DNA of 64,000 nucleotides from Spirochaetota bacterium (GTDB lineage: Bacteria > Spirochaetota > UBA4802 > UB4802): NCBI GenBank assembly GCA_040756435.1, contig JBFLZD010000007.1, forward strand, positions 18,099-82,098. Direction: 5' to 3'. Every line of letters begins with the position of its first letter. Positions within the stretch are counted from its first letter, which is position 1. The notes beneath the pieces are model-generated. The model worked only from the letters and a program-made list of their open reading frames with translations. It was not told the origin of the DNA and ran no database searches. Both the position numbers and the translations under genes were made by a program. Shown here piece after piece: positions 6,335 to 54,015 of the stretch.

Positions 6335-6517
6335 TTGAGCAATAATAGTATAACAAGTAAATCAATTTTTTCAATACCTTTTTATAGTATTTTAAAACAA
6401 TCAGTCACAATGATATATGCCATAATCAATACCCTTAGTATCACTATATTAGTTTCAATAATAATACTATGTAAATCATTAATTATTCCTAAATGTTTAA
6501 ATTTGAATAAAATATAA
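6335..6517 (+). CDS. Possible small hydrophobic protein (60 aa); its 3' end lies in the conserved 45-nt repeat leader and is followed by a GC-rich hairpin
   Basis: ORF with two hydrophobic segments, followed immediately by a terminator-like hairpin at 6523-6560. It may instead be a non-coding transcript. Confidence 0.25.
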   Translation: MSNNSITSKSIFSIPFYSILKQSVTMIYAIINTLSITILVSIIILCKSLIIPKCLNLNKI

Positions 6518-6560
6518 AATAGTGTACACCCCCGCCGCCTAAGGCGGCGAGGATGTACAC
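6463..6560. repeat. Repeat element A: conserved 45-nt leader (aattattcctaaatgtttaaatttgaataaaatataaaatagt) + GC-rich hairpin GTACACCCCCGCCGCC-taa-GGCGGCGAGGATGTACA followed by a T-run
   Basis: The leader is near-identical to 50283-50326. The hairpin is near-identical to 44734-44772. GC content departs strongly from the AT-rich background. Confidence 0.8.
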
Positions 6561-6664
6561 TTTATTCTTTATGAAATTTTTTAAGTAATTATTACTGTAT
6601 GTAAATTATTTTTTTAGCTAAGCACATCCATAATTCCTAACGTTTATAAAAGAATGAAGTTATT

Positions 6665-7344: not shown

Positions 7345-9744
7345 ATGAATTTTGAAGAATACTTTGATAATGACACCATTCAGATAGAAAATACCATTCT
7401 TGCCAGCGACCTGTCAAAAATTGATACCAATCTACCTTCTACTATACATATCATACCTGTACGATACAGGCCCATATTTCCTGGTATTATTACTCCCCTC
7501 ATAATTGCAAAACCACGGTTCATGCGATCAATTGATGATGCACTAAATACCTCGCGAGCTATTGGTTTAGCTGTATTGAAAGATGATGATGTTGAAGATG
7601 TGGAGATAGATGACATAGAAATGTTTGGCACCGCAGCAAAGATAATCAAAAAGATTAACCTTCCGGATGAAAGCATTAACGTCCTTATAAACAGTATCTG
7701 TAGGTTCAGAATCACTAAAATTATCGATGATAAAAAAAGTATTATTGCTAAAGTTGAATACATTTATGATAAAGCAAATCCAAAAAACCTTGAAATCAAG
7801 GCATTAACCCGCGCTATTTTGAGCCAGCTTAAAATACTATCCGAAAGCAACCCTCTGTTTACTGAAGAGATGAAACTCACCATGCTTAATGTTGATGAGC
7901 CTGGCCGAATAGCTGATTTTGTTACATCCATATTAAACCTGGAAAAACAGGAATACCAGAATATTCTGGAGACAATTAACGTAAAAAAGCGCCTTGAAAA
8001 GGTACTGGTACTTTTGCAAAAGGAGCTGGAAGTAGTTTCGGTTCAGCGCAAAATCCAGAACCAGATAAACGAAAAAATATACAAACAGCAACGCGATTAC
8101 TTTTTACGTGAGCAGTTAAAGATAATCAAGCAAGAATTAGGACTTGATGATGACCGCACAAATGAAATTCAGCAGATGAAATCTAAAATTGAATCCTTAC
8201 ATCTCAAGGGTGAACCAAAAGAAAAGATACAGGATGAGCTTAACCGCCTTTATTACATTGAATCAAATACACCTGAATACATCATAGCCCGTACCTATTT
8301 GGATACGGTACTTTCCCTGCCATGGAATACCTATACAGAAGATTGTCTTGACATTACACGGGCGGAAAAAATCTTAAAGAAAAGCCATTATGGGCTTGAT
8401 GATGTCAAAGAACGAATACTGGAGTTTCTATCGGTCAGAATGCTTAAACCAGATTCAGGAGGCTCAATTCTATGCCTTGTTGGCCCTCCAGGTGTTGGAA
8501 AAACCTCACTTGGGCAGGCTATAGCTGATTCATTAAAACGTACATTCTTTAGGGTATCATTAGGTGGTATACGGGACGAAGCTGAAATAAAAGGCCACCG
8601 CCGTACCTATATTGGAGCAATGCCGGGAAAAATCATTCAGGGCTTAAAAGTTTGTAAATCCAAAAATCCTGTTTTCATGCTTGATGAAATTGATAAACTG
8701 TATCAGAGCTATCAGGGTGACCCTGCAGCTTCGCTTCTGGAAGTCCTTGATTATGAACAAAACCATTCTTTCAGGGACCACTACATTGATATGCCGTTTG
8801 ACCTTTCAAAAGTACTGTTCATTACCACTGCCAATACCACCGACACCATACCTGATGTTCTGCTTGACCGTATGGAAGTCATACGTATTCCCGGCTATAT
8901 TGTTGAGGAAAAATACAAAATTGCAAAACATTTTCTTTTACCAAAACAGCTTAAAAAGCATGGTTTGCCAAAAAATTCCATTGAACTTGACAGGGATGCT
9001 CTCTTGTATATTATTAATGGTTGGGCACGTGAGGCAGGGGTTAGAAATCTGGATAGACAGTTAGAACGCCTTTGCAGGAAAAAGGCAAAATCAATTGTTA
9101 AAAAAGATAACTCATTCCCTCATCACCTTGATGAAGAATCAATACGCTCGTTACTTGGACCGGAATACTATACCGGTGATACAATACCTGATAAACTCAA
9201 ACCAGGCATTGCAATAGGACTTGCATGGACATCAACAGGCGGATCTGTTCTTCTTGTTGAGGCACTTTCCACGCCAGCACAGGGTTCTTCCACTTTAACG
9301 CTTACAGGTAATATTGGCGATGTGATGAAGGAATCAGCAACTATCGCTTATAATTATATTAAAAATTACTTTAATGATGACACTAACGCAATAGACTTTT
9401 TTAACAAGAATAATATCCATATTCATGTTCCGGCAGGAGCTATACCAAAAGATGGTCCTTCGGCAGGAATAACAATGGCATCAGCGCTTTATTCACTTAT
9501 TAAGCATATACCAGTTACAAAACGCATCGCAATGACCGGTGAGCTGACGCTTTCAGGAAGAGTGTTACCTGTTGGTGGAATAAAAGAAAAGCTTATTGCA
9601 GCAAAACGTGAACATTGCAATACAGTCATCATGCCACTGGAAAATAAGAAAGAAATGGGCGATATTCCATCGCATATCACACGGGGATTGTCACTATATT
9701 TTGTTGCCCATGTGAATGAAGTCTTTGATATACTATTTAAGTAA
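7345..9744 (+). CDS. lon: ATP-dependent Lon protease
   Basis: LON N-domain, Walker A GPPGVGKTSLGQAIA, Walker B FMLDEID, and protease-domain catalytic Ser in DGPSAGITMASALYS. Length 799 aa. Confidence 0.95.
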   Translation: MNFEEYFDNDTIQIENTILASDLSKIDTNLPSTIHIIPVRYRPIFPGIITPLIIAKPRFMRSIDDALNTSRAIGLAVLKDDDVEDVEIDDIEMFGTAAKIIKKINLPDESINVLINSICRFRITKIIDDKKSIIAKVEYIYDKANPKNLEIKALTRAILSQLKILSESNPLFTEEMKLTMLNVDEPGRIADFVTSILNLEKQEYQNILETINVKKRLEKVLVLLQKELEVVSVQRKIQNQINEKIYKQQRDYFLREQLKIIKQELGLDDDRTNEIQQMKSKIESLHLKGEPKEKIQDELNRLYYIESNTPEYIIARTYLDTVLSLPWNTYTEDCLDITRAEKILKKSHYGLDDVKERILEFLSVRMLKPDSGGSILCLVGPPGVGKTSLGQAIADSLKRTFFRVSLGGIRDEAEIKGHRRTYIGAMPGKIIQGLKVCKSKNPVFMLDEIDKLYQSYQGDPAASLLEVLDYEQNHSFRDHYIDMPFDLSKVLFITTANTTDTIPDVLLDRMEVIRIPGYIVEEKYKIAKHFLLPKQLKKHGLPKNSIELDRDALLYIINGWAREAGVRNLDRQLERLCRKKAKSIVKKDNSFPHHLDEESIRSLLGPEYYTGDTIPDKLKPGIAIGLAWTSTGGSVLLVEALSTPAQGSSTLTLTGNIGDVMKESATIAYNYIKNYFNDDTNAIDFFNKNNIHIHVPAGAIPKDGPSAGITMASALYSLIKHIPVTKRIAMTGELTLSGRVLPVGGIKEKLIAAKREHCNTVIMPLENKKEMGDIPSHITRGLSLYFVAHVNEVFDILFK

Positions 9745-20216: not shown

Positions 20217-20987
20217 TTACTTTTTTTGAGCTATCCGTTTAACCTGATAGGTTTTAAAGGCATTGATATTATAATTCATTTTACAGTATTCTTCTATTTC
20301 AGGGTGGATTGTATATCCAACCATAAATCCAATTACATCTGATTGCAAATATACTCTAAGCCTCTCAAGCATTTTTGCAAATCTATCTATATCCCGTTTA
20401 CCAGGTTGAGCCTTACATTCACCAATAATATATACATCCTTATCATTTTTTACAGCTTTAACATAAATATTAACTTCGTCATACTTGCCACTATCATATT
20501 GTATGTATTTTCTTTCTACCTCCTTAGCTTCTGCACCATATTGATTATAAACAAAATTTTCAATATACGGTATCAAATTATCCTCAATCCCATAGCCTAC
20601 AACCATTGACAATCCACCTACCTGCTTTTTTAAATCATCAACAGTCAAAATGAGATTTTTCAAAACATCTTCTGTCCTTTTCTGTGCTTCTGCTAATTCC
20701 TCAACACGCTGCTCTGTCCTCTTCTGTGCTTCTGCTAATTCCTCAACACGCTGCTCTGTCCTCTTTTGCGCTTCTGCTAATTCCTCAACACGCTGCTCTG
20801 TCCTCCTTTGTGCTTCTGACAGCTCAACTACATTTTCAGTTAACACACGAAATTCTTCTTTAGTTACTGATTGATTGATTTCATTATATATTTTTATTAG
20901 AAGATTGGTCAATACAGTAGCTTCTTTCTCGCCAAAGGTTTCTTTTAAATTTTGATAAATTTCAAACGTATTAATCATTCCCAACAC
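20217..20987 (-). CDS. Coiled-coil tandem-repeat protein with C-terminal PD-(D/E)XK nuclease-like domain; function unknown
   Basis: Three perfect 14-aa repeats ([14 protein letters not shown]) encoded by 42-bp DNA tandem repeats. C-terminal YDEVNIY...[10 protein letters not shown] fits a D...(D/E)xK restriction-endonuclease-fold motif. Confidence 0.5.
20665..20830. repeat. 42-bp tandem direct repeat x ~3.3 (unit gcttctgctaattcctcaacacgctgctctgtcctcttctgt) inside the coiled-coil gene
   Basis: Near-perfect copies at 20686-20727, 20728-20769 and 20770-20811, plus partial flanking copies. Confidence 0.9.
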
Positions 20988-44647: not shown

Positions 44648-44733
44648 AGCATATTTTATTACAATATTATATTAATTTGTATATGTCAAGTTGAATATTA
44701 TAAATGTTGTTTTAAACAATAAAATATAATATA

Positions 44734-44772
44734 CTGTATACCCCCGCCGCCGAAGGCGGCGGGGGTATACAG
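44734..44772. terminator. Repeat element A': perfect 18-bp GC-rich hairpin CTGTATACCCCCGCCGCC-gaa-GGCGGCGGGGGTATACAG, T/A-runs both sides; bidirectional terminator downstream of fliE
   Basis: Perfect palindrome. Same GCGGCG core as element A at 6523-6560. Confidence 0.8.
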
Positions 44773-44845
44773 TATTTTATATTTTGTTCAAATTTCCATA
44801 TTTAGGAATAATTAATGAAAAATTATGGTAACAATGCATCATTCT

Positions 44846-48944: not shown

Positions 48945-48964
48945 TATACACATATCAAAAGAAC

Positions 48965-49399
48965 TCATTTCTGTAATTCTTCACGCAATATGCCATTTAG
49001 TTCATCCAAAATTTCTTTAAATGCAACAAGACGTTCTTTCTTTATTTTACTTTCTATAAAATTATTAATTTCTTTGATAACTTTTTGTGCTTTCTGTATT
49101 TCAGACAATCCTAATTCCGTAATTTCTATTGAAAATTCTCTTCGGTCATTATTGTTAATGACTCTGTTAACAAAACCAAATTTTTCCAGCCTGTCTATAC
49201 TTCTTGTAATAGCTGAATTATCTAGTTCAAGCACATTGCTTATATAACTCATTGATACATTATTTTTTTCCTGTAATAAAAACATTATAGCTAATTGAGC
49301 AGGTGATGCCTTCAGCCCTTTTTTTTGTAATATGTGTTTTACATACTGATGAAGGCTATTTTGTGTTTTGGTTATACTATAATATAATCGTTGTTCCAT
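48965..49399 (-). CDS. MarR-family transcriptional regulator
   Basis: Winged-helix region (NNVSMSYISNVLELDNSAITRSIDRLEKFGFVNR). Length 144 aa. Confidence 0.8.
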   Translation of the reverse strand: MEQRLYYSITKTQNSLHQYVKHILQKKGLKASPAQLAIMFLLQEKNNVSMSYISNVLELDNSAITRSIDRLEKFGFVNRVINNNDRREFSIEITELGLSEIQKAQKVIKEINNFIESKIKKERLVAFKEILDELNGILREELQK

Positions 49400-49410
49400 G
49401 TTTAATACTC

Positions 49411-50244
49411 TTAATATACTGTTTTTATAATATTAAGTGATGACCACTCCCCTCCTGACACTATTGTCCATAGGTTTCTTTTTGGGAAAAGTTTTTTATC
49501 TATTTCCTCTATTGCATACCCTTTTTCTTTTAGTGTATTTACTTTTGACTGAATATCCACAAAATACTCCATTTTCCTTTTCATTTTTTCTTTACCGTTT
49601 TTATGCACCCCTGAATGACCACAGAATACCATATCAAAATCTAAAGAGAGTAATTTTTGTAATGATACTACGGTATCTTTGATATTTTCATCTTTGAAAG
49701 CAACCATCTGGCGTATATTGACAAAAAGGTCACCAGTAAAAAGCCAGCCCATATTCTTTTCATGCAATACAATATGATAGGGATGATGACCGGGAGCATC
49801 ATACACATCAAATGTATAATGTTCTGTTTTTAAAACATTAGGAATGGGCTGTGCATTAAATCCTTTTCTATTTCCCCATACTATCCTTCTATACAATGGG
49901 ATATTGCTGTTCTGTGATGCTTCTGCTATTGAATTTTTGTGTATATATATGGGAATATTCTTTTCTTTCTGCACCCAATGAGCTACTCCGGTATGGTCCT
50001 CATGGACATGAGTCAAAGCCACAGAAGTTATAGTTTCATTTTTAAGTACTGATGATGCTTTTTTTAATATATTAGCAGATCCTGCATCAATCAAAAGCCC
50101 ATCGGCATTATAAAAATAAACAACAAGCTGGAAAGGTGGCATAAATCCCGATAGACAAGCATAGACTTTGCATTTATCAATTAATGTAATTTTCATAATT
50201 AAATCCCTGACATATATTTGATTTATCAATATTTGATTATGCAA
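49411..50244 (-). CDS. MBL-fold metallo-hydrolase
   Basis: THVHEDHTG (H-x-H-x-D-H) plus downstream His/Asp ligands. Confidence 0.8.
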   Translation of the reverse strand: MHNQILINQIYVRDLIMKITLIDKCKVYACLSGFMPPFQLVVYFYNADGLLIDAGSANILKKASSVLKNETITSVALTHVHEDHTGVAHWVQKEKNIPIYIHKNSIAEASQNSNIPLYRRIVWGNRKGFNAQPIPNVLKTEHYTFDVYDAPGHHPYHIVLHEKNMGWLFTGDLFVNIRQMVAFKDENIKDTVVSLQKLLSLDFDMVFCGHSGVHKNGKEKMKRKMEYFVDIQSKVNTLKEKGYAIEEIDKKLFPKRNLWTIVSGGEWSSLNIIKTVY

Positions 50245-50282
50245 ATATTTGTCAAGAATTTTATATCTTTATCTGGATTTTT

Positions 50283-50510
50283 TTACAATAATTATCCCTA
50301 AAATGTGGAAATTTGAATAAAATATAAAATAGTATACCCGGGGGTGTCCCAAAACAATCCGTGGAGTTCTCAATGACGCGGGTGCAAAGTCATTGCGTGC
50401 GTAGCGAAGCAATCTAAATAGCACAGAAGACAAGATTGCTTCGTCACTTCGTTCCTCGCAATGACAGTATGGCAAAAGTCATTGCAGAAGGTGTCTTTTG
50501 GGACACCCCC
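50283..50510. repeat. Repeat element B: conserved 45-nt leader + 171-nt MITE-like element with perfect 15-bp terminal inverted repeats (GGGGGTGTCCCAAAA ... TTTTGGGACACCCCC) and internal GTCATTGCGAG-type nested palindromes
   Basis: TIRs at 50340-50354 and 50496-50510. The internal hairpin gcgaagcaatc...gattgcttcg. The leader 50283-50326 matches 6463-6520. ORF 50269-50475 (-) is a spurious translation of this element. Confidence 0.8.
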
Positions 50511-50695
50511 TATATTCATGTGGTATCGTATGTTTGAATGATTATGGAAAAATTGTTATATTTTTGTTTTCTTTATATATTGTGCTTTAATATTTCTGAA
50601 TTTCATTTTTTAATCATTTTATGTATAAATCGTAATCTCTTTAAAAAATTGTTGAATTATTTACTACATTAAATAACTATAGTTAAAAACTTAAT

Positions 50696-50770
<75 letters not shown>

Positions 50771-50794
50771 ATAAAATAATTTTTTTTGAACAAT

Positions 50795-53778: not shown

Positions 53779-54015
53779 AAAAAAGGGGACCAAAATACAC
53801 ATCATTGCAATTACACTGCACCCGCGTCATTGCGAGGAACAAAGTGACGAAGCAATCCCATAGTTGCAAGTGCCGCAGGCGCGTGGCAATCTCATCTTCT
53901 GCGTCATTGAGATTGCCCACTTAGACAAGCTTGAGGACAAGCGCTACGCTCGCAATGACATTGCACTCACGTCATTGCGAGCCCCCACGGTTTGTTTTGA
54001 GACGGTCCCTTTTTT
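53779..54015. repeat. Repeat element C: GTCATTGCGAG-type composite palindromic element between convergent bfr and flavin-reductase genes
   Basis: Contains cgtcattgcgaggaacaaagtgacgaagcaatc (reverse complement of the core of element B), plus hairpins ggcaatctca...tgagattgcc and ctcgcaatgac...gtcattgcgag. Imperfect terminal IR aaaaggggaccaaaa / ttttgagacggtccctttt. Confidence 0.75.

Follow-up and report, generated by a model that had tools for sequence, protein, structure and literature searches.

A probably selfish mosaic of repetitive extragenic palindromic-type units in the centre of a new miniature inverted-repeat element of a Spirochaetota bacterium

Introduction

The Spirochaetota bacterium assembly GCA_040756435.1 carries, on contig JBFLZD010000007.1 (positions 18,099 to 82,098), a stretch of 64,000 nucleotides (nt), hereafter the window, in which a GC-rich block lies 185 nt from a tRNA-Pro(GGG) gene (50695-50771). 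This block had been flagged from its letters alone, in what we call the original prediction, as a possible mobile element, structured RNA or terminator. The block, named element B1, occupies the centre of one copy (A3) of a second repeat, element A; two further A copies (A1 and A2) lie elsewhere in the window, and a second B element (B2) is situated between convergent bacterioferritin and flavin reductase genes (Table 1). We consider it likely that the region holds three nested layers of repeats, a miniature inverted-repeat transposable element (MITE; A), a mosaic (B) and a repetitive extragenic palindromic (REP)-type unit, and likewise that the flagged block is selfish non-coding DNA, namely a REP-unit mosaic nested in the centre of a new MITE.

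Results

Anatomy of the GC-rich block

B1 consists of four REP-type units in alternating orientation under a 15-bp outer stem. Its terminal arms (50340-50354 and 50496-50510) are complementary at 15 of 15 positions, as had been predicted, and the nested palindromes expected between them were located as inner inverted repeats of 11 nt (50405-50415/50433-50443) and 9 nt (50389-50397/50457-50465). The degenerate head that faces unit b is homologous to the stretch GCACCCGCGTCATTG of B2 (53817-53832), and a direct repeat, D1 (AAAGTCATTGC), is present in B1 at 50386 and 50475. The GC content was determined to be 49.7% for 50340-50510 and 36.5% for the window, a real contrast that is smaller than the estimated 55% in a 35% background. 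Folding of the 179-nt B1 stretch gave -74.9 kcal/mol (z = -6.6 versus shuffles), and the opposite strand of the same 179 nt folded about equally well (-72.1 kcal/mol, z = -6.1).

For comparison, individual loci or contigs were fetched and are designated by L-numbers; the relatives among them are 98% (L150), 97% (L427), 95-96% (L009), 95% (L424) and 82-88% (L001) identical to the window. Orthologues of B1 with few substitutions were found in L150 (98% identity) and L427 (97%). The motif GTCATTGCGAG, at ≤1 mismatch, matched the window 6 times against 0.64 expected, a count reached in 0 of 100 shuffles; a match of this type at 9526, inside an 799-aa open reading frame (ORF) whose identical gene in L013 carries Lon protease domains, looks like chance.

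No coding role was indicated for the block. A spurious ORF had been expected to recur with the copies, and the 68-aa ORF concerned has no match in a collection of 5.8 billion proteins and no Pfam match, while Pfam searches with five spurious ORFs returned nothing meaningful. At the gathering score Rfam matched only tRNA-Pro in the window and nothing in 11 other loci, and at E ≤ 10 nothing was matched over the elements in the window. Exact-string searches of the literature, made with the whole motif, with each half of it and with the spurious peptides, retrieved unrelated primers only.

Table 1. Coordinates of the repeat elements and their parts in the window (TIR, terminal inverted repeat; TSD, target-site duplication).
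Feature	Position	Strand	Description
MITE copy A1	6477..6597	+	canonical 121 nt, simple central hairpin; perfect 9-bp TSD TATGTAAAT at 6468-6476 and 6598-6606
MITE copy A2	44728..44817	-	left arm and central hairpin; TSD copy ATAATTTTT at 44818-44826
A3 left TSD	50277..50285	.	ATTTTTTTA; imperfect, 7/9 match with 50560-50568
A3 left arm ("leader")	50286..50339	+	TIR CAATAATTATCCC, AT-rich arm, GTATAC half-site, CC
Element B1	50340..50510	+	171-nt GC-rich mosaic of REP-type units, closed by perfect 15-nt inverted repeats
Degenerate REP head	50370..50378	-	CGTCATTGA; faces unit b; read from sequence
REP unit b, 26 nt	50389..50414	+	GTCATTGCGTGCGTAGCGAAGCAATC; short arm of inner doublet
Inner-doublet spacer of B1	50415..50433		19 nt
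REP unit c, 32 nt	50434..50465	-	GTCATTGCGAGGAACGAAGTGACGAAGCAATC; long arm of inner doublet
Truncated REP head	50478..50487	+	GTCATTGCAG; adjoins right terminal repeat
A3 right arm, degenerate	50511..50559	+	starts CTATATTCAT as canonical; about 21 extra nt; shortened TIR-like GGAAAAATTGTTAT; canonical arm is CTATATTCATTATGAAATTTTTTAAGGAATTATTGCTG
A3 right TSD	50560..50568	.	ATTTTTGTT; imperfect
Element B2	53785..54009	-	225 nt, opposite orientation; ends GGGGACC / GGTCCC; A6 and T8 runs flank
REP unit in B2, 32 nt	53826..53857	+	GTCATTGCGAGGAACAAAGTGACGAAGCAATC; 97% to reverse complement of 50434-50465
REP unit in B2, 49 nt	53911..53959	-	24-nt extra apex segment CTTGTCCTCAAGCTTGTCTAAGTG

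Element A, a lineage-specific MITE

The 45-nt leader upstream of the block had been regarded as part of the flagged element and as recurring once. It does recur at 6476-6527 (92% over 37 nt), with a third, overlooked copy on the minus strand at 44768-44818, and proved to be the left arm of a separate 121-bp MITE with TIRs and a 9-bp TSD of its own. This element A is an AT-rich imperfect palindrome whose GC hairpin, in the centre, is framed by two GTGTACAC half-sites, and its canonical sequence reads CAyTAATTATTCC…AAATTTGAATAAAATATAAAATA-GTGTACAC-CCCCGCCGCC-ttcg-GGCGGCGGGG-GTGTACAC-TATATTCATTATGAAATTTTTTAAGGAATTATTrCTG, in which the TIRs are CAyTAATTATTCC and GGAATTATTrCTG. On one strand the GC hairpin is followed by TATTTTATATTTTATT.

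A metagenome scan with a 23-mer of the leader identified 53 loci with about 38 true copies of A, mostly from one sample and many at contig ends, and contigs assembled from short reads of the same strain stop within copies of A. The 9-bp flanks of 18 full copies were identical in 12 and matched at 8 or more of the 9 positions in 16, as compared with 3.4 of 9 at control positions. All of the 39 copies scored are intergenic, and of the 24 for which both neighbours were scored, only 1 has convergent genes on its two sides. An allelic comparison was provided by the site of A2, which is empty in L424 (a single ATAATTTTT) and filled in L150, where an intact element stands between two copies of ATAATTTTT; in the window, a diverged left arm in inverted orientation (about 44690-44741) has taken the place of the right arm of A2. 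Given the TIRs, the 9-bp TSD, the empty site and the intergenic, multi-copy occurrence, A is a genuine, ordinary MITE, new and lineage-specific, of 121 nt with 13-bp TIRs. No pair of A's TIRs spaced 0.7-2.5 kb apart, as in a full-length insertion sequence (IS), was found in about 0.5 Mb of related sequence.

The left arm of A3, the copy that hosts B1, is 100% identical to the canonical consensus over 33 nt. In L001, which lacks A3, the corresponding place holds a single sequence …cttatttttgtt… and homology resumes at 50559; 9 nt are all that L001 has in place of the window segment 48953-50558, which comprises A3/B1 together with a MarR and a metallo-beta-lactamase-fold gene. The distance to tRNA-Pro is as had been stated, and its reading as a classic insertion neighbourhood did not hold up: no tRNA was found within 700 nt at about 37 other A loci, and the proximity is incidental.

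Two side observations concern the surroundings of these copies. The MarR-family regulator and the metallo-beta-lactamase-fold gene fill the roughly 1.3 kb between Ogg and tRNA-Pro (48953-50276) and are also present in L150 and L427; the 82-88% relatives have 9 nt in that place. At 44690-44830, FliE is followed by A2 and then by an AMP-binding enzyme gene, where L424 and L150 have FliE followed by FliF, and same-strain short-read contigs break at 44713-44774; this junction is either an inversion or translocation via two MITE copies or an assembly chimera.

Element B and the replacement of a hairpin by B2

Fourteen copies of B were collected, from 170 to about 330 nt long, of which 10 sit exactly between the two GTGTACAC half-sites of an A copy and 4 lie outside any A (B2 at 53785-54009, L134, L143 and L159). 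In the A copies that host a B, including 50286-50559, the central CCCCGCCGCC…GGCGGCGGGG hairpin is absent and the longer, GC-rich B is found instead. The 14 copies share the ends GGGGnnGTCyCAAAA…TTTTGrGACnnCCCC, the start extending to GGGGnnGTCyCAAAAsAAwCsGTrG and the end being its inverse; as judged by eye, copies from separate loci, such as L155 and B2, are homologous over most of their length, and at least 5 distinct B variants occur in A centres. The original prediction had looked to further copies with conserved termini or structure, and the 14 copies of B, the approximately 38 of A and the covarying stems described below supply them.

No direct repeat was found around B2, L134, L143 or L159, and inside A the flanks of B are the palindromic GTGTACAC half-sites. 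Since a TSD is lacking, B is not a classical MITE, so the MITE-like character proposed for the locus holds for A, with its TIRs and TSD, and not for the flagged block, which is a REP-unit mosaic.

The core of the block had been reported to recur in reverse complement at 53800-53835. The recurrence was confirmed for 50434-50465 against 53826-53857 (97%) and for 50368-50396 against 53807-53835 (86%), although the extent given was too small, the second element spanning the whole of B2. B2 has fold z-scores of about -6, and its minimum-free-energy structure pairs the flanking A6 and T8 runs. At the corresponding site L009 has a 23-nt hairpin, CTGCGCTGCCAAATACAGCGCAG, in the spacer aaaaaCTGCGCTGccaaataCAGCGCAGtttt, the flanks of which are conserved or identical in the window; the 225-nt B2 of the window stands in the place of precisely these 23 nt, and L001 has the same simple stem. 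Twenty-three contigs encode an identical bacterioferritin protein, and the spacer to the flavin reductase gene is about 40 nt in all ten compared. The presence of the hairpin in two lineages indicates that the simple hairpin is the older state and that B2 arrived recently, replacing a hairpin instead of adding to one.

Several smaller features of B and its units were also noted. Extra segments of 22-24 nt with the core CTGAGCyTGTCGAAG stand at the apex of some REP units, in L183 and not in L158, in L163 and not in the window at 50389-50414, and also at 53911-53959 and in L143; the insert of L183 is bounded by a repeated CGAAGTG, and near-identical paralogues are without it. Such segments suggest that tiny insertions form a fourth tier of nesting. 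In L025, from a metagenome-assembled genome (MAG, "bacterium KM4337-16"), REP doublets are enclosed by outer inverted repeats with GGGGTGTC / GGGGTGCCCC that resemble the B ends GGGGGTGTCCC, so B-like outer stems may exist in unrelated genomes. The motif GGGGWSAS from the TIRs of TIRYT genes was tried as a match for the B ends and does not fit.

Distribution, fold and covariation of the REP-type unit

The pattern GTCATTGCGAG-N(5-20)-GAAGCAATC was used to scan other genomes and yielded at least 120 loci in species-representative genomes and at least 120 in viral contigs; the doublet, arm and middle statistics given here are among the matches listed in these scans. Hosts of the unit come from many phyla and number at least 120 species genomes, among them Bradyrhizobium, Sphingomonas, Chloroflexi, Patescibacteria, Bacteroidia, Microcoleus, Planctomycetota, Omnitrophota, Helicobacter rodentium and Sporomusa; viral contigs with the unit likewise number at least 120. 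The proposal of a dispersed repeat family was thus right as regards copies with conserved termini and too narrow as regards range, the GTCATTGCGAG family not being confined to this genome. The commonest arm is the 26-mer GTCATTGCGAGCGAAGCGAAGCAATC, followed by a 32-mer with a GAGCGAAGCGAC middle; 26-nt arms make up 69 of 171 in other genomes, the 26-nt unit is found unchanged in 32 places among the genome loci, which is difficult to reconcile with convergence of unrelated palindromes, and a 32-mer identical to unit c is present in the genomes of other species.

A single architecture accommodates 94 distinct middles, the parts being, in order, GTC, ATTGC, GA, G-(optional GA)-variable hairpin-(GA)-C, GAA, GCAAT and C. 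These middles have 2.3 consecutive end pairs, compared with 0.63 when shuffled, and include many different perfect inner stems, with 345 Watson-Crick, 5 G-T and 2 A-C pairs; a test for a selected strand by G-T versus A-C wobbles accordingly had few non-Watson-Crick pairs to draw on. The outer stem, P1, covaries as well: ATTGC/GCAAT and ATTCT/AGAAT were each recorded at 120 or more viral loci, and the mixed forms in viral contigs numbered 0 (ATTCT/GCAAT) and 3 (ATTGC/AGAAT). Among close pairs in the genome loci, 36 of 38 are inverted and 32 of 38 are heads-out, and half of the heads-out doublets combine arms of 26 and 32/33 nt, the modal arrangement and that of B1, with a modal spacer of 23-26 nt.

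The orientation of solo units relative to neighbouring ORFs was weakly and inconsistently biased (70 sense versus 38 at bacterial loci, 65 versus 61 at viral loci), and 57 solo units of viral contigs lie inside long ORFs, some of which may be spurious. All-against-all clustering of the ORFs from 120 genome and 120 viral loci revealed no enriched protein family that would link an enzyme to the units, and the recurring clusters at viral loci looked, by eye, like phage structural genes or spurious ORFs. A tblastn search of the window and the fetched loci, 1.43 Mb in all, with IS200 TnpA and E. coli RayT queries found no Y1 transposase.

Individual viral loci showed further arrangements, including six units on one strand 0.4-6 kb apart (L201) and four tandem units with a 33-nt period (L232); a tandem array with a period of about 50 nt was seen in a Chloroflexus MAG (L020). 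In some viral contigs the units seem to be read through in long ORFs resembling portal or structural genes, like the RPEs in Rickettsia genes. A kink-turn interpretation of the GA/GAA loop was rejected for a misfit in the pairing register.

Other repeats in the window and its relatives

The 11-mer GCGATAGTTCC has 13 window matches against 0.39 expected, six of them exact (2636, 12679, 36829, 42059, 62338 and 63919) and seven with one mismatch, and is often preceded by cTTTTAC. Five exact copies lie in listed ORFs and read GGAACTATCGC on the sense strand of the gene, the sixth (63919) coming after the final ORF of the list; three of the sites were translated by hand and are read in different frames, so the 11-mer does not look like a peptide motif. 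At 20671-20818, three tandem 42-nt repeats (92-95% identical) in the minus-strand ORF 20217-20987 encode a 14-residue protein repeat. Downstream of tRNA-Pro in L001 (3240-3500), 4-5 tandem segments that are absent from the window each end in gctggtttttccagtcgccccgc, which resembles the 3′ end of tRNA-Pro, and look like stacked attachment-site remnants of integrative elements.

Discussion

Comparison with known repeat families

The non-autonomous mobile element, among the possibilities first raised, is the best reading of the locus, given multi-copy, palindromic elements with conserved termini that are present or absent between close relatives. Element A resembles classical MITEs (Correia/NEMIS, RUP, Nezha, ERIC) in being about 120 bp long, non-coding, multi-copy and intergenic, with TIRs, a fixed TSD and an empty site, and differs in that no candidate parent IS sharing its TIRs was found in the sequence compared. 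The BIMEs of E. coli, the NIMEs of Neisseria and the RIMEs of Rhizobium are mosaics of alternating REP-type units and short motifs that are intergenic and often lie at gene 3′ ends; B resembles these and differs in having terminal inverted repeats of its own (GGGGnnGTCyCAAAA) and in being preferentially placed at the centre of another mobile element.

For the unit itself, the closest description is that of the CGTC-tagged REPs. In the passages that define this class (Di Nocera, De Gregorio & Rocco, 2013, BMC Genomics 14:522; PMC3733652), the repeats have an unpaired CGTC (or TGTC/CCTC) head, a stem of 8-9 bp that starts A-T, T-A, a loop of 4-5 nt, which differs in length in Bradyrhizobium, and a CCA tail, and are mostly inverted dimers; they are reported from alpha-Proteobacteria, Neisseria (dRS3), Rickettsia (RPE-4/RPE-6), Chlorobi, Bacteroidetes, Spirochaetes and Thermotogae, and "apparently lack a dedicated transposase". 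No matching sequence text was found in the supplements of that paper. In the window the head reads CGTC at 53824, 53902, 53969 and 50378 (minus strand), TGTC at 50466 (minus strand) and AGTC at 50388 and 50477, and doublets in other genomes mostly terminate in …CGCAATGACG, the unit-strand reading of which is CGTC. All units have ATTGC…GCAAT, the variant ATTCT…AGAAT retaining the A-T, T-A start; inverted pairs predominate, as given above, and no flanking Y1 transposase was seen. CGTC REPs and the unit are also alike in spanning many phyla, low-GC ones included. The two seem to differ in the stem, since in place of a plain 8-9 bp helix and a loop of 4-5 nt the unit has a P1 of 5 bp that a conserved GA/GAA internal loop separates from an inner hairpin of variable length, and they differ in range, since the 2013 paper names five phyla and the unit is found here also in Chloroflexi, Patescibacteria, Cyanobacteria, Planctomycetota, Omnitrophota, Firmicutes-type genomes and many viral contigs.

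REP doublets have been described as hairpin-forming mobile units whose clusters arise by insertion into existing ones (PMC3116915). REPINs (Bertels & Rainey, 2011, PLoS Genet 7:e1002132) share with B the inverted REP pair with a short spacer that forms a hairpin, the compensatory changes, the higher-order clusters and the lack of a TSD, and B1 contains such a doublet (50389-50414 and 50434-50465, separated by a 19-nt spacer and predicted to form a hairpin). REPINs, however, are defined by a gene for a REP-associated Y1 transposase (RAYT) that has the same REPs on either side, and no such gene was seen in the window or fetched loci with the TnpA and RayT queries over a partial genome, and their REP sequences are usually genus-specific, whereas the unit here is unchanged across phyla.

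Proposed mechanism and points against it

We propose that A, inserting 135 nt upstream of tRNA-Pro, would have made the 9-bp duplication, and that A is moved by cut-and-paste by a putative DDE-type transposase acting in trans, as the signature of a 9-bp duplication indicates. B1 would then occupy the place of the central hairpin of A3. Because B has no TSD and sits where a hairpin was, in the centre of A or at a terminator, it may spread by a hairpin- or single-strand-directed route like that of REPIN/IS200-type elements, and not by a DDE enzyme; the conserved single-strand fold, with its covarying P1 and inner stem, is presumably recognised by a trans-acting protein. Any consequences for the host are probably secondary: B2 retains the A-run, stem and T-run layout of the bidirectional terminator that it replaced, and the hairpin of A with its T-rich arm could end transcription in one direction.

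Several points weigh against this picture. No transposase for either A or B was identified in the sequence searched, and the DNA of the organism itself that was compared comprises the 64-kb window and scattered contigs. B may ride inside A as a passenger, as the copies in which A contains B and carries a perfect A-type TSD (L145 and L151) illustrate, and the replacement of a hairpin could reflect recombination or repair instead of transposition. Membership of the unit in the CGTC-tagged REP superfamily fits most features, as judged on the description of the class and not on family consensus sequences; as to the tail, GCAATCCAG or CCA(G) is common in alphaproteobacterial copies, and the window reads GCAATCTaaa and GCAATCCcat with no clear CCA.

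Alternative explanations

It is possible, though unlikely, that B is an internal variant of A, or of local hairpins, generated by recombination, gene conversion or template switching between palindromes, and spreads only within A. The 10 of 14 copies inside A and the A-type TSDs of the combined elements agree with this, and the right arm of A2, converted to an inverted left arm, testifies that palindrome-driven rearrangement happens here; yet four copies lie outside A, the B variant closest to B2 is that of L155, inside an A, which points to exchange between the two contexts, and at least five distinct variants occupy A centres.

There is also a small chance that the units and the B mosaics spread without a dedicated transposase, either by copying directed by the hairpin apex, such as template switching or fold-back synthesis at hairpins extruded while DNA is replicated or repaired, or with the help of an enzyme, so far unrecognised, that acts on single-stranded hairpins. 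Spread of this kind would explain the missing TSD, the exact replacement of a hairpin, the 22-24-nt apex inserts, the near-perfect Watson-Crick inner stems of differing sequence and a transposase that has been missing since 2013. The presence of units in viral contigs suggests that phages would then carry them from one phylum to another.

That the elements are selected transcription terminators or insulators, repeated through reuse and not selfish spread, appears quite unlikely. B2 speaks for it, being flanked by A6 and T8 runs between convergent genes in the exact place of a conserved bidirectional terminator hairpin, as does the TATTTTATATTTTATT that follows the GC hairpin of A on one strand. 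But a terminator scan calls nothing at B2, where a loop of more than 200 nt separates the arms of the closing stem, B1 is located in a divergent promoter region, where there is no gene upstream that it could terminate, A copies are between convergent genes in only 1 of the 24 cases and arrive by transposition, as TSDs and the empty site attest, and 57 viral solo units are inside long, possibly spurious, ORFs. The terminator or insulator function first suggested for the family is thus plausible for B2 only.

Improbable, too, is that B is a structured non-coding RNA gene or a cis-regulatory RNA under selection at the RNA level, with the arm of A as promoter or leader. The strong fold (z = -6.6), the covarying stems and the sense excess among bacterial solo units (70 versus 38) would suit such an RNA, but Rfam lends it no support, both strands fold about equally, and as the units form inverted doublets any transcript would carry sense and antisense copies. 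In addition, the inner stems are not enriched in G-U pairs (345:5:2), viral solo units are without orientation bias, B copies occur in both orientations relative to their neighbours, and no sigma-70-like promoter reading into B1 was predicted in the left arm of A, a weak 9/12 match lying just upstream (50260-50289).

Chance formation of local palindromes in a GC-rich patch, favoured only by the small size of the motif, is practically excluded by the nearly tenfold excess of motif matches, fold z-scores of about -6, dozens of homologues with conserved ends and hundreds of units elsewhere.

Significance

Nested repeats of this kind break short-read assemblies, and one copy, A2, marks a break in synteny or a possible chimeric join; contigs of the same strain end inside the repeats, so that flagging makes for better assembly and gene calling in the lineage. 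The 26-nt unit with its compensatory stem variants is distributed more widely than the five phyla reported in 2013. The lineage offers recent, datable events, namely the change from a terminator hairpin to a 225-nt mosaic at about 5% divergence, filled and empty MITE alleles and the apex inserts, which could help to work out how this superfamily of repeats spreads.

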